The position numbers and the translations under genes are program-made. From the IMG/VR virus record IMGVR_UViG_3300029361_000001: DNA of 64,000 nucleotides; one strand, written 5' to 3'. The notes beneath the pieces were generated by a model. It was not told where the DNA came from and did not search any database. It saw only the letters and a program-made list of their open reading frames with translations. Position 1 is the first letter of the stretch. Every line of letters starts with the position of its first letter. This document shows, piece after piece, positions 558-64,000 of this stretch. The stretch comes from a virus.

Positions 558-630
558 AGCCGGATTTGAGACTCGTTATACGGATACCGAAGGTTGAAGA
601 ACGATATCAAGATAATCCGGCTTTTTTGTG
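558..630 (+). terminator. Candidate intrinsic terminator: a 9 bp stem (agccggatt / aatccggct) with a long loop, followed by TTTTTTG.
   Basis: The inverted repeat 558-566 / 614-622 is followed directly by a T-run, 37 nt after the stop of the upstream ORF. The 47 nt loop is atypically long. Confidence 0.35.
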
Positions 631-893
631 CGATTTCGTGAAGGATGGAACTATCATCGCCTTGGTTTAACAGAACAGACCTACGTACCTCCACTGTCCT
701 GACGGGCATGGGAGCCCGTCTCGCCTACTACCTGCCTGATACCGAAGGTTGAAGAACGATATCAAGATAATCCGGCTTTTTTGTGCGATTTCGTGAAGGA
801 TGGAACTATCATCGCCTTGGTTTAACAGAACAGACCTACGTACCTCCACTGTCCTGACGGGCATGGGAGCCCGTCTCGCCTACTACCTGCCTA
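584..893 (+). repeat. Tandem direct duplication, two copies of 155 bp, each carrying a GC-rich 7 bp-stem hairpin (gacgggc-atgggag-gcccgtc).
   Basis: The sequence 584-738 is repeated almost exactly at 739-893. As a by-product, two overlapping minus-strand ORFs in the track share an identical N-terminus. Confidence 0.9.
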
Positions 894-2500: not shown

Positions 2501-5356
2501 GTGAAAAAAGATAGTATGAAATTACGAATCATAAAAAATCGTCCGATATTCGCTCCTGGCGGTAGTGTTCAGGATAAGAAACAGGATATTAATGTATCCT
2601 CTACTCAGCCTATTCTTGATTATGGAACGTCTGTTAATAAATGGGGTGAATCTGATATTCAGAATATATATATGCCTTCTGATGTGACTTTAGAAACAGA
2701 GGAGGGGGAGATAAATCCATTTAGTAGTATGCCTACATCCGATCCGTTTTTTGAAAACAATGATGCAGGATATGCAGGATATCTCGCTGATAATAGGGGT
2801 ATGGTTAAAAACGTAGAGAAATCAGTCGTTGATAATGCAATGAATGTAGGTGGTGTTGATGCTGATTCCTCTAAAGAAAAACGTTCCCAAGATGGTAATC
2901 CTCTTGATCCTATGACTACCCCATATTATTCACCCGATCTAACCGGCAGAGCTCAAATGTTCGGTACAAGTCTTGGCCGGATAAGAGCCGGTAATAAGGT
3001 CGGTGCTAATGTGGCTCAAGCTGCCTTGTCTGGTGTTAGTTTAGGATTAGGTCTTACCCGTAATATCATGGGAGCTTCATCTGCTGCGTATGCAGCCAGC
3101 AGAGACGAGCAGGCAGCGAGGGAAAAACTTGCCAAGGAGCGTCGTCAGCAATTCATCAAGTGGGAACGTGAAGGTGGTGGCGTGAATTTAGGTAACGGTC
3201 AGAAGATGGATACGTCTGATATGACCGGCGAATATATTTATCCTCTTCCCAAGTCTATGGAAGATGCTGCGAATGTAGAGATAGAGAAAGGCGAGTACGT
3301 GCTGACTCCTGACTCCGTAGGGCCTATGGAAGCCAAAGGAAACAGACATGAAAATGGTGGCACTCCGGTTGATTTGCCAGAGGCTTATATTGTTTCCGAT
3401 TATCGTAAGATAGATGATGAGTTTGCCTCTTACGTTAGAGAAAATTATGGTATTAAGGCAACGTCAAAAGATACGTATGCTACACTCCTTGATCGATATA
3501 AGAAGAAGATAGGTTTGTCTGATAAGTACGAAGATCAGGAGCGTGTATATAAGAGATTAGAGAAAAATGAAGATGTAAAAGACAAAAACACATCTAATCT
3601 TAATGCTTCTATTCTTTCCAAGTACGTCAATGAAAACCAGAAAGAGATAGACGAGCTTGAAGCACAATTTCGTTCTTTCGCTGAAATCGTTTATGGCAAA
3701 CAGGAAGAATCTAAGCGTAACGAGAGGATGAATGCTTTTTTCAGGGATGGCGGGGTTGTTGATCTGAATCAGGTAAAGAAACAAGCTAAGGCTTTTAATA
3801 TTGCAGAATCAGATGCTAAGAACTGGATATATGACGAGTATGTTAAGCAAACCAGAAAAATGGCTGAAGGTGGACCTACTCAGAAGGAGCTGGAGGAACT
3901 TAGAAAGAATGCTATCGGCTACAATAAGCTTATCAATCAGTTATTTGGACGAACTCTTAATATGACTGTATCTGATGTTAGTGGTCGTGAGCAGATCCTT
4001 AATCCTGATTCCAGTGTCAATGCCAACCAGAATCTCCAACATAGAAGCAATTTAGGATACGGCAGGGTAAATGATAAGGCGGTATCTAATTTGCTCGACA
4101 TAAACCGATGGGCTAACAAGTACAATACGGATGGTGATTTTGATACAGAAGGTTTCCAGAAAGGATACAACAGGCAATTAAATGCATTGTGGGCGTTAGC
4201 TGATGTAGGCGCTATTACGAATGCTGATGCAGCCAAGAAATTCAGAGATGAATACGGATTCTGGGGCCAGGACGCCGGAAGCTACGGAGGGAATCAGGCT
4301 TATAATTCATTTGCCGTAGATGATAAGTTTGGTCAGACAACAGCTACTCGTTCTTATTATGGGTTGGACGTTGTTTCGGCAGAGCAAAAAAGATTGTTAA
4401 ACGAAAAAGGGATAAAGAATTATGTTGACTTATTTGGTGATAAATCTGATGCCGCTAAGAAGATTCTGGGCTCCGATTATAATAAGTTTGTTGCTTTAAG
4501 AGATAGTGGGTTAATGCCGGAAATAGACTTCGTTCTTGAGTCTGTTAAACCAGAAATGAAGCCTATTGAGGCCGGTCCCATAGCACCAGGCCTTACACCG
4601 CCTAAGATTGGATCTCCTGGAAGGATAGAGGTAAAACCGAAAGCAAGTACGCCTACGACTGCAACTGACACCGATACAGAGGAGGTGGTTGAAGACAACG
4701 GACCTAAAGGACAGGGCAGACCGGCGGCGTTCGGTCCTATCTTCCCGGAGATGCTGAGAACGCTCGATACAGGCTTGGAGATAGAAGGTCTGGAAAGACA
4801 TCAGGCTCCGAGAATAGATCCGGTTCTTCAATCTGCTGATCAGTATATCAACGAGCTCAACCGCGCGACATCGGCTCAGTTGGACGCAGTAGGTGACGTG
4901 CCCGACTCCCAGCGTTCCGCTATTCTGGCTAATATGAACGCCATAGCCGGAAGCAATATAGCCAAGTACGTTAATGAAGTAAATTTCAATAACGCAAGGC
5001 AAATAAACGAAGCTGATAGATTCAATGAAATGGCTTATGTTCAAACAGATGATAAGAACATAGCGGAAAGGCAACGTTATGAATCCGGATTATTGAAGGC
5101 TATGGCTATAAGGGATGAAAATCTTGCTCGTTATTATGACAGTATAAACAGCGAGATACAGAATAAGTTTAATGTTAGAACTTCATTGAATACCATAGCT
5201 TCCATAGCTCCGAATATGAGAATGCTTCCAAGTGGCCAAATTATTTACGTTCAAGGTAATCAGGATGTGATGAATATGGGTGATTATTCTACACCTTACT
5301 TGAGAAGTTTAAATGAAGAAGATGACGAAAATAAAAGAAGAAGGAGGACCAAATAG
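2501..5356 (+). CDS. Large virion-associated protein (about 946-951 aa) with a Gly/Ala-rich hydrophobic N-terminal segment, coiled-coil regions and a Pro/Thr-rich linker.
   Basis: This is a 2.85 kb ORF. The track start is a GTG at 2501, but the ATG at 2516 (MKLRII) just downstream of a TAnnTTTG motif is the more likely start. The GANVAQAALSGVSLGLGL segment resembles internal or ejection proteins. Confidence 0.6.
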   Translation: MKKDSMKLRIIKNRPIFAPGGSVQDKKQDINVSSTQPILDYGTSVNKWGESDIQNIYMPSDVTLETEEGEINPFSSMPTSDPFFENNDAGYAGYLADNRGMVKNVEKSVVDNAMNVGGVDADSSKEKRSQDGNPLDPMTTPYYSPDLTGRAQMFGTSLGRIRAGNKVGANVAQAALSGVSLGLGLTRNIMGASSAAYAASRDEQAAREKLAKERRQQFIKWEREGGGVNLGNGQKMDTSDMTGEYIYPLPKSMEDAANVEIEKGEYVLTPDSVGPMEAKGNRHENGGTPVDLPEAYIVSDYRKIDDEFASYVRENYGIKATSKDTYATLLDRYKKKIGLSDKYEDQERVYKRLEKNEDVKDKNTSNLNASILSKYVNENQKEIDELEAQFRSFAEIVYGKQEESKRNERMNAFFRDGGVVDLNQVKKQAKAFNIAESDAKNWIYDEYVKQTRKMAEGGPTQKELEELRKNAIGYNKLINQLFGRTLNMTVSDVSGREQILNPDSSVNANQNLQHRSNLGYGRVNDKAVSNLLDINRWANKYNTDGDFDTEGFQKGYNRQLNALWALADVGAITNADAAKKFRDEYGFWGQDAGSYGGNQAYNSFAVDDKFGQTTATRSYYGLDVVSAEQKRLLNEKGIKNYVDLFGDKSDAAKKILGSDYNKFVALRDSGLMPEIDFVLESVKPEMKPIEAGPIAPGLTPPKIGSPGRIEVKPKASTPTTATDTDTEEVVEDNGPKGQGRPAAFGPIFPEMLRTLDTGLEIEGLERHQAPRIDPVLQSADQYINELNRATSAQLDAVGDVPDSQRSAILANMNAIAGSNIAKYVNEVNFNNARQINEADRFNEMAYVQTDDKNIAERQRYESGLLKAMAIRDENLARYYDSINSEIQNKFNVRTSLNTIASIAPNMRMLPSGQIIYVQGNQDVMNMGDYSTPYLRSLNEEDDENKRRRRTK

Positions 5357-8300
5357 TGGCTTCACAGTATAGTATTTTAAGGCAATATGCCCCGTATGTT
5401 AGTCCTTACAACATAGATCTTGTTAAGGACGTCATGATGTACAAACAGCAGAAGGTTGATGCTGCTCGTGAAAAGATCTATACCCAGGTAGATTATCTTA
5501 TGGGTCAAGAGATAGATAAGCCTGAAGCCCGCGCTTATATGGAAGATAAGATGTCAGGTGTGATTGCTAACATCAATCAAAAATTCAAAGGCGTGGATCT
5601 TTCTTCTGATGGTGTTACGAGAGCTATACAAGGAGAGATCAGTTCGGTGTTAGATGATACGGTCATTAATGCTATTGCCGGTACAAAAGAAGGCAAGAGG
5701 GTTATGAAGGAAATAGAATCTATAAAACAGAATCATCCTGAACTTTATTCTCCTATTAATGAATGGCATGCTTTGGATCCTTATTACAAATGGAGGTCAG
5801 ATGGTAAGGCGGGATCAAGGTTGGGAGGTCTTCATTATTCTCCTTATGTCGATTATACTAAGGAGATAAATAAGCTGGTTAGTGACTTTAGGAAAAACAA
5901 CGAAGGCAAGAAGATTCAGACAACAGAATATGATGTTAAAGGTAATCCTACTGGTGGAATCATAGAAGTCAACGTAGATGAGCTTACTGATTCCCAGATA
6001 AGGAATTTTGTGTCTGCTAACTTATCTGAAAACATGAGGAATCAGATGAGAATAGAAGCATCATACATGGCAGCCACCAATCCAGTGTTCAGTAATCCGG
6101 ATTTGGTTAGTCAATATATTGGGTCTTATGTCGAAAGATACGATAGGCACATAGGAGCATTGGAAGCAAAAAAGAAATCAGTAGGGGATAATAAGGATAT
6201 TATTGATCGTATTGACAGCCAGATACAGGAAGCTAAAAATCAGAAAGCAGAAGCCAAGAGGGAGGCAGATATGATAATAGCTTCATCAGATCCGGTAGCG
6301 GCTGCTAATTTTGTTGTTACCAATAATCTTTTCGATAAGATGACTGATGCATGGAGATACGACAATACAAGTTTTGAAAGGAAGAAAGACGATCTTTATT
6401 TTGCAAGGTTGGCAGAGGATAGGGCTCAGCGAAAGTTTTTGACTGATAATGCCAAGTCCATGGTTGAAATATCATTGGCGAATGAGCAGCTTGCTCAGGC
6501 TAAGATTGAAACCGAATACATGCGTACTTACGGTTCCAAGATGGGCACTGAAAGCTCATCCGGAGGCACAAGAGGAGCAGGCGGTGTAGGAGTGCCGATG
6601 GCTCCTATGGACGGGCCTACGGCTATCAATTCTGGAACGGGTAAGATAGGATCTGTTAATTTGGCTAATATCCCTTATGAACAACTCACATCTTCTTCCA
6701 CAGAGCGTAGAGCAAATTTATTGAAATTATATAATTCATTATCTCCTACAGACAGAAGCAATATCGTTGCAGCATCATACGAAGAAGAAAAAACTGACCC
6801 AGGATTGTATGCTAATATGACTCCTGAAGAACGGATATATTCTTATTTAAAAAATAATGGAGGTCAGAAAAACGGATATTTCGGACAAGGAAATAACAGA
6901 TTGTCTGAAGCTTATGATGCTTTACTTCTTTCTGATTCTAAGGCAAATGGAGCTGCAAAGGCTATAAATAACGTAACTGATTATCAAATAGATAATATAG
7001 TTACTAAAAAAAATAAGGATATTATCAGGAAAGTTCGTAATGCTAAGTTTATGAAAGGAAATTCTTTTATGAATCTTACCAATACAGATGATAAGGCTGG
7101 AGCCTTCCTGCTCGCCACAGCCATAACAACTGGTGTATCTGATGCCGTAGGGATCAGAGAATACATGATGGATCCTTCAAGAGGAATAGATATTCTTAGT
7201 GCTATATCTCCGTCATTAGGAGCTAAGGTGAGTGCCGGCAAGTTGGGGAAAAACATATCTGATGCTATTACAAGCGAGAATAATGGTTCTTCTACTGGTA
7301 CATTGGCTCTTATTAATGGAATGAAGAAACTCAATGGCGATCCTGATTTTAATATATCTGATTATATGACCATAGATAAGGATGGTGATATAGATTTAAA
7401 AGATTATCAGGAAGGTGAACCATTGACTATTACCCAGCTAAGATATGCTGAGAAAAACAGTAGGGTGTCTGATATGATAGCAAGTCAGATGCAGGATGAG
7501 ATAAAAATGTCTGTATCTCCCGATCAGATTTCTGATAAGTTATCTCAGTATCATTACCTTGATTCTTACAAAAGATACAATTGGAATGCCGATTCGCCGG
7601 AAAAGTCTTTGCAGAAGGCTCAGTTTAGAAGATTGTCTGGTTACATGGCAGGAAAGGTAAATAATCTGGATCCTACTGCTATTAATGCCATTAATATGGA
7701 TGCCGAGATAGATAATGGCACCGTTAGAAGATTCTTGACTGCTCAAGTAGGTTCCGGTGAAAATTCTTATGTTACAGAAAGGGTTGAGATTACGAATGAC
7801 GAGCTTCTTAAGGCGGGTATAGATCCTTCGGTCGAGGAGCGCAATTATCCGGTAGATGGCTACAAATCAAGTTTTGAAACCTGTGATTTTGTAGATACCG
7901 GAAAGAAGGAAGGTTATTCTTATGATAAGTATCTTATACGTAATGGCCTTCCTCGTTTGGCTTCTAAGGCTGATGTTAAGAATGATCTTTATGATATAGT
8001 AAAGGTTCATGGTTCTTACCTTAAGCCAGAAGAAATGAATGTTGTTAAAGCCCTTGTTGATAATTTTATTGACATGTCTGATAATATATCAGTTCAGTTG
8101 GAGGGAATGGACGATAGGGGTTCAAGAGAGGTAGCGGTCAATTTCTATGACAAAAGGACTAAAAATTCTAAAAATCCTGCATTGTTGTTCTCGGATTTTG
8201 TTCCTTTGGATCCAGGTAATGATGAGTATGCGGATTACTGGAATAGCATTCACCAGAAGTGTCCTCAGTACTTCTTTGTAAAATACGTGAAGGAGGCTGT

Positions 8301-15608: not shown

Positions 15609-17864
15609 ATGGGTGTCAAATGTCAGATAGAAAAGAAGGAAAATAAAATAGAACGGGTTGAGGCTCCTAACGGTGAGCCTTCCGTTCTTTACGAAAGTGC
15701 TTTAAAAGTATTAGGAAACAGCGAGCGGGCTCTTCAGGTATGGGCTAAGGCTTACACTCCTGGTTTTTTGTCGTATTACGGTCATTGGAATAACCCGGCT
15801 CCAGGGGAGATGTTTAATACCGATCCTAATGGCGAACCTCTTTTAGAAGATGTGCTGTCGTATATGAAGCGTCAGGCTTATTTTTCCGATCCCTTAACGG
15901 CTCAGGATGTTAAGGATGTAAGAGATGTTATGATATCCAATTCCATATATAGCATACGATCTCTTATTAATAGAGTTAGAAGCTCTTTTTATGTGGATGG
16001 TAATCTTATCCTAAATGAAGAAAATCTAAGGAGATCCGGCTTGTACAATGAGACAGAGATAAGTAGGATATTAGATAATCCTTCTGTACTTAATGAGGTC
16101 AGCTCTTTTATGAGGTTATTATTAGATTATTCCAATAACGAACACGATCTCGGGAAAGAGTCTTACTTCACAACCGTAGAAAAACCATACGGTCCTGTTG
16201 TGTATAAAAATGGTGTCTTCGATAAATTAGGAAAGAGAGCATCATATAATCCGGCTGAAGTTTACGAGGTTATAAAAAATACAGTAGGAGGTATTAGTGT
16301 TGCTTCAGAGTTTGATGCTGCTTTCGAATCTTTATCTGATTCATATCCGGAGTTAGTTGAAAGATATCAGTCGGATAAGAGTTTTGCCTTGTCGCTGTTC
16401 AACGAATTTTCGAATATGAACATCGTTCCGGTTGTGGCTTTAGAAGATAATAATATCGTAGAAGGGAAGAGACGGTCATTATCAAAGTTGCAAGATTATG
16501 CTTATTACAGCCCTATTGGATCTGAGTCATTACGAGCTCGTATATCAGCCTTTCTAAACAGGGTTAATGCTGATACAGAAGAAGACCTTAGAAGTATGAT
16601 ATGGGATGTAGAAGAGGCTTGTGTAGGTCTTGGTATAGATATCGTAGGCGTGTCTAAGGCATATGACGGAACAGAAGAATCGCTGAATAAAATTGATAGC
16701 TTGATGCTGGATCTTGATATTTATGTAGCAAGGCGCAACGATGATACTTATGCTCCTACCTTAGCTTCTGCTATCGATGACGTTCTTGGAGATAGCCAGG
16801 ATCGCCGTGTTATGTTTCTGCCAGAGTATATGGATAATATGAATATCGTTTATATGGAATCTGACATAGATCCGGTATCGGCATTTGAAAATCATTCTCT
16901 GCTTTATCTTGGTGGAAACCTATATCATAAGGTAGAAAGAGATAATTTAGGTGATTTGTACGATATAGCTGCCGAGCTTGCCAAGCGGAGTCTAACTTAT
17001 TTCCCACCTGGTATCTATCCTGAATATTGTTTTAAGGATGGTGTTTTAGATAAGCTCCGCGTGAAAAACGTAGATAGTAAGGCCCTTGCTGATTCTATTA
17101 AAAAATACGTCCTGTCTTATACCGATTCTCAGAATACGGAAGAGATGAATGCTACCAGATTGGCGTTCGGTCATCTTGTTGTTCCTGGAAGCCCGTATGT
17201 TAATGAAGAACGGGAGTTTAGCCGATACATAAACAGAAAGCAGGACAAAGAGAATCCTTTACTCTTATTCGATTTATACCAATCTTATCTTGAAAATAAG
17301 CTTCATAATACGGAAGTGTACGAAGGGGCATACAAGTATCTTGACTTTAAACCAGATCATTTACTGGGTCTTACCGTTTCAGATCCGGATACGTTAAAAC
17401 AAATTGAACTATCTTTGGCAGGTAATGATCGTGAGCAGTTATTTGAGTATAGCATGAGCAGCACCGATCCTTCTTTTACAGATCTGTTCTATTTGGATTA
17501 TTATGATATGTTATATGCCGGTTCTGATTTCTATCACGATCTTTTTACGAAACATCCTAATCTCTTAAATGAGGTTCGGGATCATAACATAACTAAGCAG
17601 GATGATAATGTTATCGTAGAAGGTTTGTATGATAATTTTATCAGAATAGGAGACATGGTGTTCACTAAAGTTGGCGAAAGTAGTTCCGGCTCTATCTACC
17701 AAAATCTAACAGGAACCGAATCGGAGGTGAAATACGATTCTACTCAGAAGGCTAAGACGGTAGAAACCGATTACGCTCCATACCAAAACAGATCTGGCTT
17801 GACGCAAGATATGACCGTAAGCAAGTCTGAATTGGATGATCTTAATAAATTGGAATGCAGGTAA
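15609..17864 (+). CDS. Large hypothetical protein, 751 aa, the last gene of the large-protein operon.
   Basis: This is a 2.25 kb ORF, followed 45 nt downstream by a hairpin (17909-17936) and then a strong terminator at 18371. Confidence 0.6.
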   Translation: MGVKCQIEKKENKIERVEAPNGEPSVLYESALKVLGNSERALQVWAKAYTPGFLSYYGHWNNPAPGEMFNTDPNGEPLLEDVLSYMKRQAYFSDPLTAQDVKDVRDVMISNSIYSIRSLINRVRSSFYVDGNLILNEENLRRSGLYNETEISRILDNPSVLNEVSSFMRLLLDYSNNEHDLGKESYFTTVEKPYGPVVYKNGVFDKLGKRASYNPAEVYEVIKNTVGGISVASEFDAAFESLSDSYPELVERYQSDKSFALSLFNEFSNMNIVPVVALEDNNIVEGKRRSLSKLQDYAYYSPIGSESLRARISAFLNRVNADTEEDLRSMIWDVEEACVGLGIDIVGVSKAYDGTEESLNKIDSLMLDLDIYVARRNDDTYAPTLASAIDDVLGDSQDRRVMFLPEYMDNMNIVYMESDIDPVSAFENHSLLYLGGNLYHKVERDNLGDLYDIAAELAKRSLTYFPPGIYPEYCFKDGVLDKLRVKNVDSKALADSIKKYVLSYTDSQNTEEMNATRLAFGHLVVPGSPYVNEEREFSRYINRKQDKENPLLLFDLYQSYLENKLHNTEVYEGAYKYLDFKPDHLLGLTVSDPDTLKQIELSLAGNDREQLFEYSMSSTDPSFTDLFYLDYYDMLYAGSDFYHDLFTKHPNLLNEVRDHNITKQDDNVIVEGLYDNFIRIGDMVFTKVGESSSGSIYQNLTGTESEVKYDSTQKAKTVETDYAPYQNRSGLTQDMTVSKSELDDLNKLECR

Positions 17865-17908
17865 TTTTTGTATACATATAATATAGTTTTTTCATAATTA
17901 CGATTTGG

Positions 17909-17940
17909 AAAGTGAGGCTTGTGAAAGTCTCACTTTTCTC
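17909..17940 (+). terminator. Hairpin (aaagtgag / ctcacttt, 8 bp stem) immediately after the 751 aa gene.
   Basis: The inverted repeat 17909-17916 / 17929-17936 has its T-tract inside and after the stem. Confidence 0.4.
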
Positions 17941-18370
17941 ATATATGTACGTATATCAATAACATACAAGAAAAGTTATATTTTCATTGTTTATGGATTA
18001 TTTTTGTTAAGTTTGCGATATTAGTTTCAGGAAGGGATTATGGGAATAAGGAAAAAGTAAGAACCGAACGTAACTAATAACAGTAGGAAATGAGAATCAG
18101 TACCATCAAACGTAACAACAGCATTCATCTTATGTATAAAAACATTATGAATGATTTAGGTCAATTAAGAACTGTAGTTTCAAAATCCTATATTTATAAT
18201 CTGATACAAAATCAAACCGGATTAAGTATCAGAACTATATCCCATGTCTTGAATCACACAAAAGAACAGGATACAGATTCTTTGTGAAAACCATACATTT
18301 TCATACATTTGTGTGTTCTTTAGTTTTTAGATTTAAGTTTTTCATGGTATTAGTTTAGATTAGTGTAGAT

Positions 18371-18408
18371 CAGGGTTCGCAGTGATGCGGGCCCTGGTTT
18401 GTTTTAAA
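18371..18408 (+). terminator. Strong rho-independent terminator: a 10 bp GC-rich stem (cagggttcgc / gcgggccctg), a 6 nt loop, then GTTTGTTTT.
   Basis: The hairpin is followed directly by a T-rich tract. Confidence 0.7.
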
Positions 18409-19092
18409 AAGTATTAAAATATTTGTTATTTAAAATCCTGTTCCTATCTTTGTTCCAGAAACAATGAACAACGAGATCCCACCTCTGGTTGTTTGATGTT
18501 GAAAGATATTTTTGGCTCATTAGGGTTTGTCATAGTGGGATCTGACATTCTCTTTTGGGCCTATTTTTTTTATTATGGATAATACTTGTATTCCTTTTGT
18601 GTTAATAAACGACAGAAAAATGATTGACGCAAAACATGTTCATAAATTGTTAGAATGTAAGTATGATTTTAAACATTGGATTAAGGATGTAATATCATCT
18701 TTTAATTTTATGACGATCGGGTATTAGATATAATACATAGATCTATCGATAGGTATAATAAAAAATGTATAAAATATTTTACATATATAATAAGAAATAA
18801 TAATAATGGTTTTTATAAAATAGGTAAAAGCTCTGATGTAAAAAGAAGGCTATCTGGGTTGTCTATTGTAGAAGATAACTTAACATTAAGAATGGTTCAA
18901 CTTATCAGATTGCGATTTGAATGATATAATTGATAAATATAAATTCAAGTTGTGTGACATGGCTTGAATTTTATTACAATAAAAAGTGATTAAGAGATGA
19001 GTCTATGGTGATATTTACTCATCTCTTCTTATTTTTCTGAAAATACTTCTCTTCTATAGGAAATAAACACACCCATATTCCACCCTGCAATC

Positions 19093-20157
19093 ATGATCTT
19101 TGTTACGTGCTTCATGCACATATGTTTAACAATTAAATACTATAAAATTATGGGTGGTGATAAAATCGTCCTTTTAGATGGAGCCGGGGCTAACGGTGGT
19201 GGTGCAGCCACTAACGGTCTTCTTTCAATGATTCCCGGCATGTTTGCTAATTTGATAGGTGGTAATAAAATGGATCCGAATCTGGTGGCGGCTTTGATGA
19301 ACGGTCGTAACAACCAGGACGGTTTCGGTGGGGCTAACGGTTGGTGGCTCTGGATAATTGTTTTGTTCTGGCTGTGGGGTGGACGCGGCTTCGGTAACGG
19401 TTTTGGAAATGGCGGTGATTGTTGCGCCAATGGTTTGCCGGCTCAGTTGAATAACGATTACGGTCGTGAACTTTTGATGCAGGCAATTCAAGGTAATCGT
19501 AGCGCCATAGATCAGATTGCTTCTGCTTTGAACTGTTCTACTACTCAACTTCAGAACGCTATCTGCAACGTACAGGGTGCTATTGATAAAGTAGCTGGTC
19601 AGGTAGGTATGACTTCTCAGGCTGTTATCAACGCAGTTCAACAACAAGGTTGTGAAATAGGAAATCAAATCAGCTCTTGCTGCTGCAATCTGAGTTCGTT
19701 GATCAATCAAAGCACTTGCCAGACTCAGGGAATGATTACTCAGCAAGGTTTTGATAACCAGCTTCGCACGTTGGAACAAACCAATATCTTGCAGAACGGT
19801 CTCAACCAAGGTCTGGCTAACAATCGTGAGCAAGCTACAAGCCAATTCAATATCTTGTCTGCGAAACTTGACGCCCAAACCGTTATGATCAACGACAAAT
19901 TCTGTCAGTTGGAAATGAGGGAGATGCAGAACACTATTGCTCAACTTCGTGAAGAAAAAGCGGCTTTGACAGCTTCGGCATTATCTCAGCAACAAACCCA
20001 GAATATCGTTGGTCAATTACGCCCGACGGCCGTCCCAGCCTACCCCTCTTGTTCTCCTTACCAGGCTTATTCTTGGGGACAGGTATTCGGAGGAGGTTAC
20101 TGCAATAACGGATGTGGATGTAACAACGGATGTTGCAATAACAACGCTGCTGTCTGA
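19093..20157 (+). CDS. Gly/Asn/Gln/Cys-rich low-complexity protein, 354 aa (336 aa if it starts at the ATG at 19150). It has a Trp-rich transmembrane-like segment and Cys-rich N- and C-termini (…GGYCNNGCGCNNGCCNNNAAV).
   Basis: The plus-strand ORF is co-oriented with its neighbours. The overlapping minus-strand ORFs have the Leu/Ser/Thr-rich composition typical of antisense reading of a Q/N-rich gene. Confidence 0.45.
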   Translation: MIFVTCFMHICLTIKYYKIMGGDKIVLLDGAGANGGGAATNGLLSMIPGMFANLIGGNKMDPNLVAALMNGRNNQDGFGGANGWWLWIIVLFWLWGGRGFGNGFGNGGDCCANGLPAQLNNDYGRELLMQAIQGNRSAIDQIASALNCSTTQLQNAICNVQGAIDKVAGQVGMTSQAVINAVQQQGCEIGNQISSCCCNLSSLINQSTCQTQGMITQQGFDNQLRTLEQTNILQNGLNQGLANNREQATSQFNILSAKLDAQTVMINDKFCQLEMREMQNTIAQLREEKAALTASALSQQQTQNIVGQLRPTAVPAYPSCSPYQAYSWGQVFGGGYCNNGCGCNNGCCNNNAAV

Positions 20158-52267: not shown

Positions 52268-52765
52268 CTATGATTCTAATATGGTGTCTACAAACTCCGT
52301 TATTTTATCAACGGATTCTTTTGATAAGGTATATCTTCTCCAATCCCATCTAAAATGCGCTTTTGGGAGATTTTTAGTAGAATATTTTTCATTTCCGTCC
52401 TTGTTAGTCCATTCGTAATTATCCTCTGGATCCGCCACTTTTATCCCCGATTTAGGTCCGTTACGAAAGCTATATAGCATTCTTATAACCGATTCAAAAT
52501 CCGAACCTATATCAAATAGCATATGATACACCTTGTTTATTAAAGCCCTATCAGCGTTTATTAAAGCCCTATCAGCTTGTCCCAAGTCTTCACCAAACAA
52601 CTCTCTTACACTCCAATTTTTCATTTCTGAATAACGAATGAAATTAAGTTTCCCTTTTTCTATATTAGGATTTTTTCTTGATAATACAAGCTCCAAATCT
52701 TTCACAAATGATTCTTTTAGCTTCTGTTGTCCTAACAAGGCGGTGTATTTGCTTACTATATCCAT
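52268..52765 (-). CDS. Hypothetical protein, 165 aa, with an in-frame 7 aa tandem duplication (ADRALIN ADRALIN).
   Basis: It contains the 21 bp tandem repeat at 52536-52577. Confidence 0.4.
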   Translation of the reverse strand: MDIVSKYTALLGQQKLKESFVKDLELVLSRKNPNIEKGKLNFIRYSEMKNWSVRELFGEDLGQADRALINADRALINKVYHMLFDIGSDFESVIRMLYSFRNGPKSGIKVADPEDNYEWTNKDGNEKYSTKNLPKAHFRWDWRRYTLSKESVDKITEFVDTILES

Positions 52766-61542: not shown

Positions 61543-62056
61543 ATTATTATTGTTTTATGCATTATACAAATACAAAGAGCGCATACCTTCACAGGCCGGC
61601 GCTCCTTTCAATAAAAATGAAAAAACTAATATTACAGAAACATATTGTTTTCTACTCTTTATTACAATACTTTTGTTCCGCAATTATTATATCTACCATA
61701 TTCGTTTCTTCCATCATTCCGTATTTCAAAAATCATCTTCTTATGATCTTTGCCTGGTAACCTATCCTTAACAGCCGATATTACGCCCGCTATAGACGTA
61801 AAGCCTGAATCTGTTATTGAACACAGTAACACACCTCTGTCTGCGCCGGTGCTTATCGCTGACGCCTTTATAATATCATTCTTGTATATTCTCATAATCT
61901 TTTGTTTTATTATCTACAAACTTATCTATATCGTCTCTTATTCTTTTTAGCACTCCGGCTATAATTTCCGGCATCTCTCCTTCGGTACGGTTCAGAGTTT
62001 CTATCACCCCATCAATCCTACCAATTTGACGCCATAAGAAATTGGCGTCTTTCGCA

Positions 62057-62305
62057 TTAAATTCCCCCATCATGTCTTATTTTACAGTAAACAACTTGCT
62101 TTTTTAAGCACCAGTCTTGCGATTCTGAGAGTGAACACCGTTCGGAGTTGTTAAAAAATATACAATCTTTGCAGAACATAAGAGGATCTTCGTCGTCACC
62201 AACTACTTTGACATCATACTCTATGCCATACAATTTTAATCTAAATACATCTCCTGCTTCTTTAGAAGATAAATCCATGTCTGGACTGAATGTTATTACT
62301 TCCAT
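62057..62305 (-). CDS. Hypothetical Cys-containing protein, 82 aa.
   Basis: ORF. Confidence 0.3.
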   Translation of the reverse strand: MEVITFSPDMDLSSKEAGDVFRLKLYGIEYDVKVVGDDEDPLMFCKDCIFFNNSERCSLSESQDWCLKKQVVYCKIRHDGGI

Positions 62306-62478
62306 ATGATTATGATTTATTGTTTGTGAGATTCCTGGAATCGAACCAGAACCGACACATACATACCGGCACGCCGCGCCATCCCTCTATGATACAGAAA
62401 TAGGCATGCCTATTCTCACGAACCGACATGCCAAAACCCAAAACTTAATTTGATGAATAAAATAGATTAACAAAAATA

Positions 62479-62793
62479 CTATTCTAATTCTTTTATAATA
62501 TCTTTCACAATATTCAGCCTTACCTCCTTCGTTTCTGGACTAAGACAACCAAACCACCCATAAAACGTTCTTGTTTCCTCTGGTTCTGTGGCCATACTTA
62601 TCTTCTCCTCCAATTCCGGGAAATATATTCTCACCATTTCGTCTGAACGAAACTCATAGATATTTTTATGTGTTTTGAAATACATAAACACTACATTTCT
62701 TAACGCAACACATATGTATTCCCCATCCTCTAACCTATCAATCATCTCATATACCTTTTTCCATATGAATAATCGCTCTTCTTTTGTAAACAT
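62479..62793 (-). CDS. Hypothetical protein, 104 aa.
   Basis: ORF. Confidence 0.35.
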   Translation of the reverse strand: MFTKEERLFIWKKVYEMIDRLEDGEYICVALRNVVFMYFKTHKNIYEFRSDEMVRIYFPELEEKISMATEPEETRTFYGWFGCLSPETKEVRLNIVKDIIKELE

Positions 62794-62801
62794 ATCTTTC
62801 T

Positions 62802-63149
62802 TTATTTTTGTGGTATTATTTGACTGTACGCAGACTTTTCCATGTACACAACACTATGTTCCTGTCCAAGTATTTTCTTTGCTGCTTCTTTCTTTATCGC
62901 GCAATATCTCCCTGTACGATACGGATTCTTTTGATCTGATCCATCCTCGACTTCGATAATAAAACAACCTCCGTCATCTATTATCTTTTTGCAATTGTCA
63001 CATACTCCGCCCGTGCATATATGATGCGGCGCCTGCCCTTTGATGTTATTCCCTAATAAAGCAATCCCCATCTCTTCGCCACATATCATGCAGACTTCTA
63101 TAGACGGATTCAATCCGTGTTCTGGATGTAATGTAATACCATCTTTCAT
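62802..63149 (-). CDS. Cys/His-rich putative zinc-binding protein, 115 aa.
   Basis: It has CMICGEEMG…HHICTGGVCDNCKK. Confidence 0.35.
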   Translation of the reverse strand: MKDGITLHPEHGLNPSIEVCMICGEEMGIALLGNNIKGQAPHHICTGGVCDNCKKIIDDGGCFIIEVEDGSDQKNPYRTGRYCAIKKEAAKKILGQEHSVVYMEKSAYSQIIPQK

Positions 63150-63490
63150 TTTCTTTCCTCCTTTGTTTTTAATGTTGTGTGAGATCGCCGGAATCGAACC
63201 GACCTACCGCACCATGAATCCCATAAAGCAAATGCTCCGATCTTCGCAGATGGGAGCATTCTGTCTAAAGCATAAGAAAATTAATGAAGAAATTTTTCTC
63301 ACTTACGCCATAGCATCTAAAATAGCTATCAGCACTATTTCTATGACAAACATAATAGAAAATATCTTAAATGCCTTTTTCATATCGCTATCTCCTCCTT
63401 TTTATTTTTTTTAGTTCCACAATAAACTGTTCCGGCTCTGCTCCGACCTACGTTCCACCTACAACCGCAGGCCTTAGCCCAAGGCGCCGC

Positions 63491-63691
63491 CTACTCCCCC
63501 TCTATGGCAGCCTGTTCGTACCTACAAATCCAATCTCCATCTATACAACTATCACTACGCGATAATAAACATTTATCCTTATAACAATCACAAAAAATAC
63601 ACCCACTACCTTCTATTCCTTTTACCCCAAAAATACAACCTTCTACCTCCTTACTCAAATCTAAGTCAGGCGCAAAGTCATATACGTTCAT
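63491..63691 (-). CDS. Small Cys-rich protein, 66 aa.
   Basis: ORF. Confidence 0.25.
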   Translation of the reverse strand: MNVYDFAPDLDLSKEVEGCIFGVKGIEGSGCIFCDCYKDKCLLSRSDSCIDGDWICRYEQAAIEGE

Positions 63692-63790
63692 GTTGTTTAT
63701 GTTTTAATTGTTATACATTCCGATTGAAAAAAAATACTCACATAATGCAGTCCTTAACCCTTACATACAGAATACTGTTTTAAAAACGGT

Positions 63791-63908
63791 CTTAATTTTG
63801 TTGGAAAATCCTACATTGTGCTGTTTTAAAGCACTGCAATCCTTAATTTTGTTGGAAGAAACTACAAAATGCTGTTTTAAAGCACTGCAATCCTTAATTT
63901 TGTTGATG
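63791..63908. repeat. Two copies of a roughly 51 bp module (…gctgttttaaagcactgcaatccttaattttgttgg…), giving three spaced cttaattttgttg cores.
   Basis: Direct repeats lie at 63820-63854 and 63871-63905. The core is at 63791, 63842 and 63892. Confidence 0.8.
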
Positions 63909-64000
63909 GTTGAATTTTGTTGAAAGAGAGTTGAATTTTGTTGAAAGAGAGTTGAATTTTGTTGAAAGAGAGTTGAATTTTGTTGAAAGAGAGTTGAATT
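63909..64000. repeat. A 21 bp iteron array (gttgaattttgttgaaagaga) with at least 4.4 perfect copies, truncated by the window edge.
   Basis: Perfect tandem copies lie at 63909, 63930, 63951 and 63972, with a partial copy at 63993. The array shares the AATTTTGTTG core with the upstream 51 bp repeats. Confidence 0.9.

Follow-up and report, generated by a model that had tools for sequence, protein, structure and literature searches.

Closely comparable among described systems are the tandem early promoters of the virulent podophages T7 (A1-A3) and N4 (P1-P3, which serve its virion RNA polymerase), which are kept in the same layout at the leading end of the genome. The repeat array analysed here resembles T7 A1-A2-A3 and N4 P1-P2-P3 in having two to three modules of the same orientation, in non-coding DNA at one locus, between the predicted end of the genome and the first small early gene. 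It differs from them in that its modules carry neither a host consensus on the gene-facing strand nor an N4-type hairpin, and in having extra arrays made of one module box (box B) only. Module spacing also differs, being 51 bp in the array and roughly 100 bp or more in T7. A further likeness to N4 is that a related phage, crAssE-Sib, is reported to carry a virion RNA polymerase. The array is of a familiar kind, a putative tandem binding-site array in a phage control region, rather than a system of a new kind; the literature yielded no account of iterons or variable repeats for crAss-like phages. Here we establish its anatomy, uniqueness, orientation, box-versus-spacer constraint, position, hypervariability and effect on assembly.

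The DNA analysed (hereafter the window) was the whole stretch of 64,000 nucleotides from IMG/VR record IMGVR_UViG_3300029361_000001. Window positions 62000-63881 showed 95% identity to OR575929 (phage csAssE-Sib/crAssE-Sib, 151,256 bp, human gut), and positions 77,148-150,585 of OR575929 were collinear with the entire window. crAssE-Sib was described by Babkin and colleagues as an epsilon crAss-like phage (PMC11054128), and the array-bearing phage is, judging by sequence, likewise an epsilon crAss-like phage, of the proposed genus Epsilonunovirus. The crAssE-Sib assembly is pseudo-circular, its position 1 was chosen with PhageTerm (p = 1.5e-22), a DNA polymerase gene is absent from epsilon phages, and a phi14:2 gp66-like virion RNA polymerase was reported in crAssE-Sib (PMC11054128). 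No integrase was found in crAssE-Sib, and plasmid-like persistence or lifestyle was raised as a possibility; the repeats of the array are not mentioned in that paper (PMC11054128). As the only conserved, unique, orientation-fixed non-coding element heading the early genes of a phage group with no DNA polymerase and an unusual virion RNA polymerase, the array is an obvious first target in the search for an early promoter, origin or persistence element of these uncultured phages.

Anatomy and genomic setting of the array

The array spanned 63765-64000 (236 bases) and consisted of three two-box modules at 51 bp spacing followed by at least 4.4 perfect 21 bp units (Table 1). Each module comprised a box A and, 24 bp later, a box B, with a variable spacer between them. 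The core AATTTTGTTG started at 63794, 63845, 63896, 63913, 63934, 63955 and 63976, and one unrelated match was present at 6307. The eight occurrences in the 64 kb window compare with 0.43 expected, and none of 100 shuffles reached eight. TRF revealed a 51 bp period with 2.3 copies at 63791-63905 (90% match) and a 21 bp period with 4.4 copies at 63909-64000 (100% match, 0 indels). GTTGAA recurred every 10 or 11 bp within the 21 bp units, giving them a 10/11 bp substructure.

An original prediction, made from the letters of the window, had described seven AATTTTGTTG cores in 51 bp and then 21 bp repeats, and all its coordinates and counts hold. Both of the 51 bp modules that it counted are present, but a third, partial module of the 51 bp type has to be added, whose box A (A0) precedes the start given in that prediction and whose counterpart at the other end is box B3. 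Its view that the array is not a CRISPR was confirmed: the 21 bp units abut without a spacer, and what separates the cores of the 51 bp modules is the conserved box A. It had also suggested a search for the 21-mer elsewhere in the genome. GTTGAATTTTGTTGAAAGAGA was absent from the rest of the window even at three mismatches (expected 0.01), and a module matrix found no further module in the 151 kb relative. This matrix scored 57-69 bits at the array, as against a best score of -6.8 elsewhere in the window and the 151 kb relative and -4.6 in shuffled genomes.

Table 1. Array boxes and adjoining features at the right end of the window.
Feature	Position	Strand	Sequence and remarks
First gene of leftward ORFan run	63491..63691	-	66 aa, Cys-rich, acidic; from ORF list
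AT-rich conserved leader, abutting first gene upstream	63692..63726	-	GTTGTTTATGTTTTAATTGTTATACATTCCGATTG on + strand; in nearly all haplotypes
Bacteroidota-type promoter-like segment, leftward	63727..63761	-	TTA-N18-TATTTTTT; read from sequence
Box A0	63765..63784	+	ATACAGAATACTGTTTTAAA; from repeat-family analysis
Box B1	63791..63806	+	CTTAATTTTGTTGGAA
Box A1	63811..63830	+	CTACATTGTGCTGTTTTAAA; module starting 63809, PWM 63.3 bits
Box B2	63842..63857	+	CTTAATTTTGTTGGAA
Box A2	63862..63881	+	CTACAAAATGCTGTTTTAAA; module starting 63860, PWM 57.1 bits
Box B3, junction to short-unit array	63893..63908	+	CTTAATTTTGTTGATG
Box-B-only expansion	63909..64000	+	4.4 perfect copies of GTTGAATTTTGTTGAAAGAGA, cut by window end

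The array is non-coding: a coding role was rejected because unit lengths in many relatives are not divisible by three, no start context is present and all frames vary. A hairpin or cruciform in the modules was likewise rejected (ssDNA fold z-scores -1.14 and -0.63; MFE of the 21 bp array 0). No Rfam family was found in the window or, in a relative, in the region past the window end, and no tRNAs were found in the window.

In crAssE-Sib, the + strand block (17.4-110.8 kb) encodes terminase, capsid, tail and giant virion proteins, and the - strand block extends from 110.9 kb across the record end and start to 17.4 kb. The repeat region lies at 150,460-150,620, within the leftward block and not at its end. 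The array had been placed by the original prediction at the far end of the early and replication block; this placement did not stand, as the leftward block runs ~18 kb further, with helicase, SSB, sliding clamp, ThyA and dUTPase. The order to the right of the array is ~1 kb of mostly non-coding DNA, then small genes, PNK, NrnA, tRNAs, dUTPase, SSB, sliding clamp, ThyA and helicase. Immediately to the right of the PhageTerm point, the preceding block is closed by two leftward terminator-like hairpins, and past them, in leftward order, come a tiny two-helix membrane ORF, the array and the ORFan run. This run, to the left of the array, is long (more than 20 small ORFans, all leftward) and is followed by primase, DnaB-like helicase and other replication genes. 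Runs of ORFan genes are typical of phage early regions.

The ATG of the first gene in the run is 74 bp from the first box A, and the array is upstream of the gene. The product is 86 aa in most relatives and 66 aa in the window, the result of an in-frame internal deletion of 20 aa; the 66 aa product had no Pfam or PHROG match. Pfam and PHROGs gave nothing informative, and no DNA-binding protein, for 20 small proteins flanking the array on both sides. The promoter-like segment between leader and array has a -7 box at 63729-63736 and a -33 box at 63755-63757 on the minus strand, and has the form TTA/TTG-N18-TATTTTTT. It is optional, being present in 47 of 80 relatives. The Bacteroides promoter consensus is TTTG / TAnnTTTG.

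A 115 aa protein encoded nearby (window 62802-63149, minus strand) belongs to a C4 zinc-finger family present across crAss-like phages; its identity is 31% to gp27 of Carjivirus communis and 43% to a Bacteroides phage BS162P1 protein.

Variation and constraint among related phages

Three sets of loci were compared: 80 from IMG/VR found through the C4 zinc-finger gene next to the array, 74 retrieved by a two-core pattern search, and assemblies encoding the exact 66 aa first gene of the window. Because the 80-locus sample was anchored on a neighbouring gene, it is unbiased as to the array. The array was found, in the same place, in about 100 related independent assemblies and in GenBank OR575929. 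Diverged C4 zinc-finger homologues (P0035, P0032, P0062 and P0060) still came from the same genus and had the same array; P0068, from a PolB-encoding phage, had none, and no comparable array was found in Bacteroides phage BS162P1 or Cellulophaga phi14:2. The 10-mer core alone is not diagnostic, because the two-core IMG/VR search also matched unrelated contigs (coding repeats, other arrays).

Unrelated IMG/VR contigs L109 (~2400-2600), L111 (~3300-3450) and L130 (3450-3800) contained dense clusters of the motif TTGGATAA(A) / TTATCCAAC in both orientations. This motif is one base off the DnaA box, and the clusters resemble an iteron or DnaA-box origin of another element.

All 298 cores in 82 loci had the same orientation, with none reversed. 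Contigs that span the locus had 1-13 cores, and L133 had at least 18; L168 and L169 had two each, and the crAssE-Sib array consisted of three modules of 51 bp plus a single degenerate short unit. Unit lengths among relatives were 15, 20, 21, 22, 23, 28, 31 and 51 bp. The start-to-start spacings were 51 bp (110 cases), 50 (18), 21 (37), 22 (16), 23 (18), 28 (16), 31 (10), 15 (8) and 20 (6), of which 15, 23 and 28 bp are off helical phasing. Copy number and unit length varied widely among genomes more than 94% identical, so that the array is a variable-number tandem repeat, differing in copy number among close relatives. At least one or two modules were retained in every genome examined, whatever the number of short units.

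Boxes A and B were near-invariant among 143 distinct modules (several positions 143/143); at spacer positions the major allele was below 55%, and the module tail also varied freely. The box A consensus, CTACAnAATGCTGTTTTAAA(A)C, includes the palindrome GTTTTAAAAC, and the box B consensus is TT(G/T)AATTTTGTTGGAA (also given as TTKAATTTTGTTGGAA). The offset from A to B was fixed at 24 bp in the 143 modules, with the box centres about 23 bp apart. The constrained module is ~47 nt, comprising box A, 14 nt of free spacer and box B. Neutral duplicates would diverge evenly; the uneven divergence therefore points to selection on boxes A and B. The short-unit arrays are evidently expansions of box B only, on the gene-distal side.

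Assembly behaviour and relation to the predicted terminus

The 39-mer at the window junction had no match in IMG/VR or JGI metagenome contigs, and the window end is likely the end of the source contig. A near-identical 139.6 kb scaffold (L162) shares with the window both the gene for the 66 aa variant and the left part of the array. Past this part it contains ~12 short units, including half units (GTTGAAAGATG) and three tail variants, and its array ends at the conserved flank GAGTGCCCTCCC, followed by a variable (CCCTCT)n tract. The extension past the window that had been advised for counting the units therefore led to a finite array, at least in this scaffold.

The array was internal in L162 and in 47 of 80 gene-anchored contigs; by coordinates, 28 of the 80 ended in it, i.e. 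about a third of related metagenomic contigs end at the array. A 100-N gap adjoins the array in L162, and a gap lies inside it in L163. Contigs from sister samples had ends inside the array or a collapsed module. The array is real. The copy number that any short-read assembly gives for it should be read as a lower bound or a guess, because of the N gaps, collapsed modules, contig breaks and differences even among sister samples. The original prediction had named a collapsed assembly artefact as the outcome that would speak against it. The existence of the array is upheld by the many independent assemblies and OR575929, but the caution was justified in part, in that copy number varies between assemblies and gaps and breaks are frequent.

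Five contigs of 141-155 kb had the array at both ends in direct orientation. A circular assembly opened within a tandem repeat accounts for these contigs, which mimic genomes with terminal repeats. In virome catalogues, an array at both contig ends can pass for direct terminal repeats or for a "complete circular genome" signal. The clearest immediate consequence of the array is thus technical: broken assemblies and spurious terminal repeats in a gut phage lineage that is very abundant. Strain-specific array architecture could also serve as a typing marker for this lineage.

The PhageTerm start of crAssE-Sib lies to the right of the array, at a distance of about 640-800 bp. Contig L005 reads through the PhageTerm point, as expected of a permuted or terminally redundant genome. 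Since the array is internal and finite in spanning contigs, including L162, it is near the terminus and is not the terminus. The suggestion in the original prediction that it is a genome-terminus element is at odds with its internal position and with a PhageTerm start 640 bp beyond it.

Two copies of a 17 bp direct repeat, TTTCGTTTTAGACCAAT, found nowhere else in the genome, are 74 bp apart (L001 9888-9904 and 9962-9978; crAssE-Sib 151143 and 151217). This pair lies 40-115 bp before the PhageTerm start, and is a better candidate for the packaging recognition site than the array.

The (CCCTCT)n polypyrimidine tract directly flanks the array and is 11-43 nt long (mode 19) across relatives (L162; L005 10668-10692; L003 2712-2749). 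It is purine-rich on the leftward strand and might form a triplex or R-loop. A second, unrelated tandem array (unit 31-33 bp, TCTCTCCCATCACATAAACATCTTTCTCACATA, 3.6-4.5 copies) is intergenic in the leftward block, at L005 13375-13519 and crAssE-Sib (L002) 2066-2176, about 2.7-3.5 kb right of the main array. Nine of the 80 gene-anchored contigs ended at this 33 bp array.

Possible functions of the array

We tentatively favour the reading that the array is a single-locus cis-regulatory region, whose tandem control or promoter modules may head the leftward early operon. This reading is suggested by the ~47 nt module, the two boxes, the two to three basal copies, the fixed orientation, the single locus and the virion RNA polymerase, taken together. 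The array lies between the predicted genome end and the first early gene, as tandem early promoters do, and is the only upstream element common to all haplotypes. A (degenerate) module directly adjoins the first gene's conserved leader in ~30 of 80 genomes, and no further candidate promoter lies between the two. The functional unit would be the ~47 nt module, arranged head to tail in two to three copies in the basal state. A sequence-specific DNA-binding factor would recognise the modules and control or start transcription of the early genes; candidates are a polymerase that recognises tandem promoters (the gp66-like virion RNA polymerase) or an early-promoter regulator. The 21 bp units would have arisen on the gene-distal side by lineage-specific slippage or unequal crossover of box B alone. 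Units spaced at 15-23 bp are too crowded to be independent promoters, and another role, or none, has to be assumed for the box-B arrays.

The two elements of a bacterial promoter have a centre-to-centre distance about equal to the 24 bp A-to-B offset. However, the minus (gene-facing) strand of the modules had no match to the TAnnTTTG/TTTG Bacteroidota or sigma-70 consensus. The only consensus-like piece in the modules, the -7-like TAATTTTG in box B, faces away from the genes, has no -33 partner, and reads GAATTTTG in roughly half the modules. The modules therefore give no support for a host-type promoter, neither strand having both elements. No N4-type hairpin was found in the modules (z-scores -1.1 and -0.6; the 21 bp array is unstructured). 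The early non-coding region of phi14:2 had no comparable array, and no promoter motif for the gp66-like class of virion RNA polymerase was found in the literature. A more specific version of the promoter reading appears improbable, namely that the 47 nt two-box modules are promoters of the crAss-type (phi14:2 gp66-like, two-barrel) virion RNA polymerase and that the box-B arrays would act as a landing platform concentrating injected polymerase at the entering genome end. An origin or a packaging site would be just as compatible with the uniqueness, direct orientation and non-coding position of the array.

An iteron-type origin is possible but rather unlikely. A phage initiator or host factor would bind the repeats cooperatively, melt the DNA and load the phage DnaB-like helicase, and host polymerase would replicate the genome, as epsilon phages have no DNA polymerase; the phage has to recruit host replication machinery. 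Direct repeats of 17-22 bp recur several times in the array, all in one orientation; their spacing is 21-22 bp in many lineages, and in the window GTTGAA comes each 10-11 bp. The locus is unique and non-coding. The 50 bp on its gene side are 78% AT, and the tract flanking it, purine-rich on the leftward strand, could favour an R-loop. It thereby resembles lambda ori, P1 oriR and the R6K, pSC101 and F iterons, which share ~21 bp direct repeats, one orientation, a unique locus and an AT-rich side. Against such a role, cumulative GC skew in crAssE-Sib had its minimum at 17 kb and maximum at 110 kb, i.e. at the strand-switch points, with a monotonic slope through 150.5 kb and to the window end, although this is weak evidence because phage skew largely follows gene orientation. 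No DnaA-box-like site (at most one mismatch) occurred within about 700 bp, the nearest being ~770 bp away, and AT content was unexceptional (local 60 bp maximum 0.82, as against 0.87-0.90 at 15 other genome sites). Pfam and PHROGs revealed no initiator of Rep_3, O, RepA or DnaA type in 10 proteins of the replication block (22 kb away; primase, DnaB-like helicase and an exonuclease-like protein) or in 20 flanking proteins, a search that a highly diverged initiator would escape. A copy number from 1 to at least 18 and off-phase spacings of 15, 23 and 28 bp are unusual for origins, and the constrained two-box unit of ~47 nt is larger than typical iterons. The array thus differs from the iteron origins named above in its hypervariable copy number and spacing and its 47 nt two-box unit, as well as in having no cognate initiator, DnaA boxes or skew signal. 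The original prediction of an iteron-type origin was accordingly supported in part, by iteron-like direct repeats, uniqueness and non-coding position. The skew check that it proposed gave no inflection at the array (extremes at 17 kb and 110 kb), and the further search made here for nearby DnaA boxes, an exceptional AT stretch or a recognisable initiator found none.

Neutral evolution of a minisatellite, in which only the basal sequence or none matters, slippage expands and contracts the repeats and much of the variation is assembly artefact, is an unlikely explanation. The perfect copies in the window imply recent expansion, the wide differences in copy number and unit length among genomes more than 94% identical would be expected, and N gaps, collapsed modules and contig breaks occur even in sister samples; the flanking (CCCTCT)n tract and the second 33 bp array 2.7 kb away are likewise unstable. 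Neutral drift with homogenisation, however, would not leave boxes A and B near-invariant while the spacers of the same units vary, and orientation and position are fixed in all genomes, none of which is without a module. We also consider it unlikely that the array is an accessory element of packaging or the terminus, with sites for small terminase or a DNA-bending protein that would mark the concatemer junction near the cut. Regions of pac/cos type are genome-unique and often have phased repeats (SPP1 pac, lambda cosB, P1 pac), in crAssE-Sib (95% identical) PhageTerm gave a highly significant start 640 bp right of the array, and five IMG/VR contigs have the array at both ends. However, the predicted cut is 640-800 bp off and has its own genome-unique repeat pair, TTTCGTTTTAGACCAAT. 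No related contig ended at the PhageTerm point; ends fell in tandem arrays, as expected of repeat-induced breaks. Spanning contigs had ordinary unique sequence on both sides of the array, and those with the array at both ends are accounted for by a circular assembly cut within the tandem repeat. In being short, strain-variable, near but distinct from a cleavage/packaging signal, and troublesome in assembly, the array is comparable to the DR2/DR4 arrays of the herpesvirus "a" sequence and to poxvirus terminal repeats; this is analogy only, as those are eukaryotic viruses with unrelated packaging machinery. Plasmid centromeres are tandem arrays of tolerant copy number upstream of an operon, and the array shares with F sopC (12 x 43 bp), R1 parC (10 x 11 bp) and the pSM19035 omega heptads its tandem modules with a short palindrome, its position upstream of an operon, its tolerant copy number and some units of helical period. 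A role as a centromere-like partition site or as an array that titrates a protein, comparable to sopC, parC or omega sites and serving plasmid-like persistence, is nevertheless very improbable, even though a plasmid-like lifestyle was raised for crAssE-Sib, with no integrase found (PMC11054128). No ParA, ParB or ParR-like (or ParM/adaptor) protein was detected among the flanking proteins, and box A-N14-box B had 4 matches in 185,579 reference genomes, which is chance level, with no episome or prophage among them. The array thus differs from plasmid centromeres in having no detected partition ATPase or adaptor nearby.

Several features away from the array were also noted. A perfect tandem duplication of 155 bp (two copies, window 583-892) lies in the + strand structural block, within ~900 bp of non-coding DNA (521-1428); the element is single-copy in crAssE-Sib, and the duplication in the window could be real or an assembly duplication. 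A perfect tandem repeat of two 21 bp copies (GTTTATTAAAGCCCTATCAGC) is present at 52535-52576 in the leftward gene block. Two full matches to TTTG-N17-22-TAnnTTTG occur on the + strand, at 18281-18311 and 18422-18452, in a 1.2 kb ORF-free gap (17864-19093). The region of this gap had 80% identity to crAssE-Sib, and the antirepressor gene of that relative is missing from the window there. Outside the window, at 72.3-72.8 kb in crAssE-Sib, four DnaA-box-like sites (at most one mismatch) in 500 bp form the densest such cluster of the genome, adjoining an 88% AT stretch and two tRNA genes.
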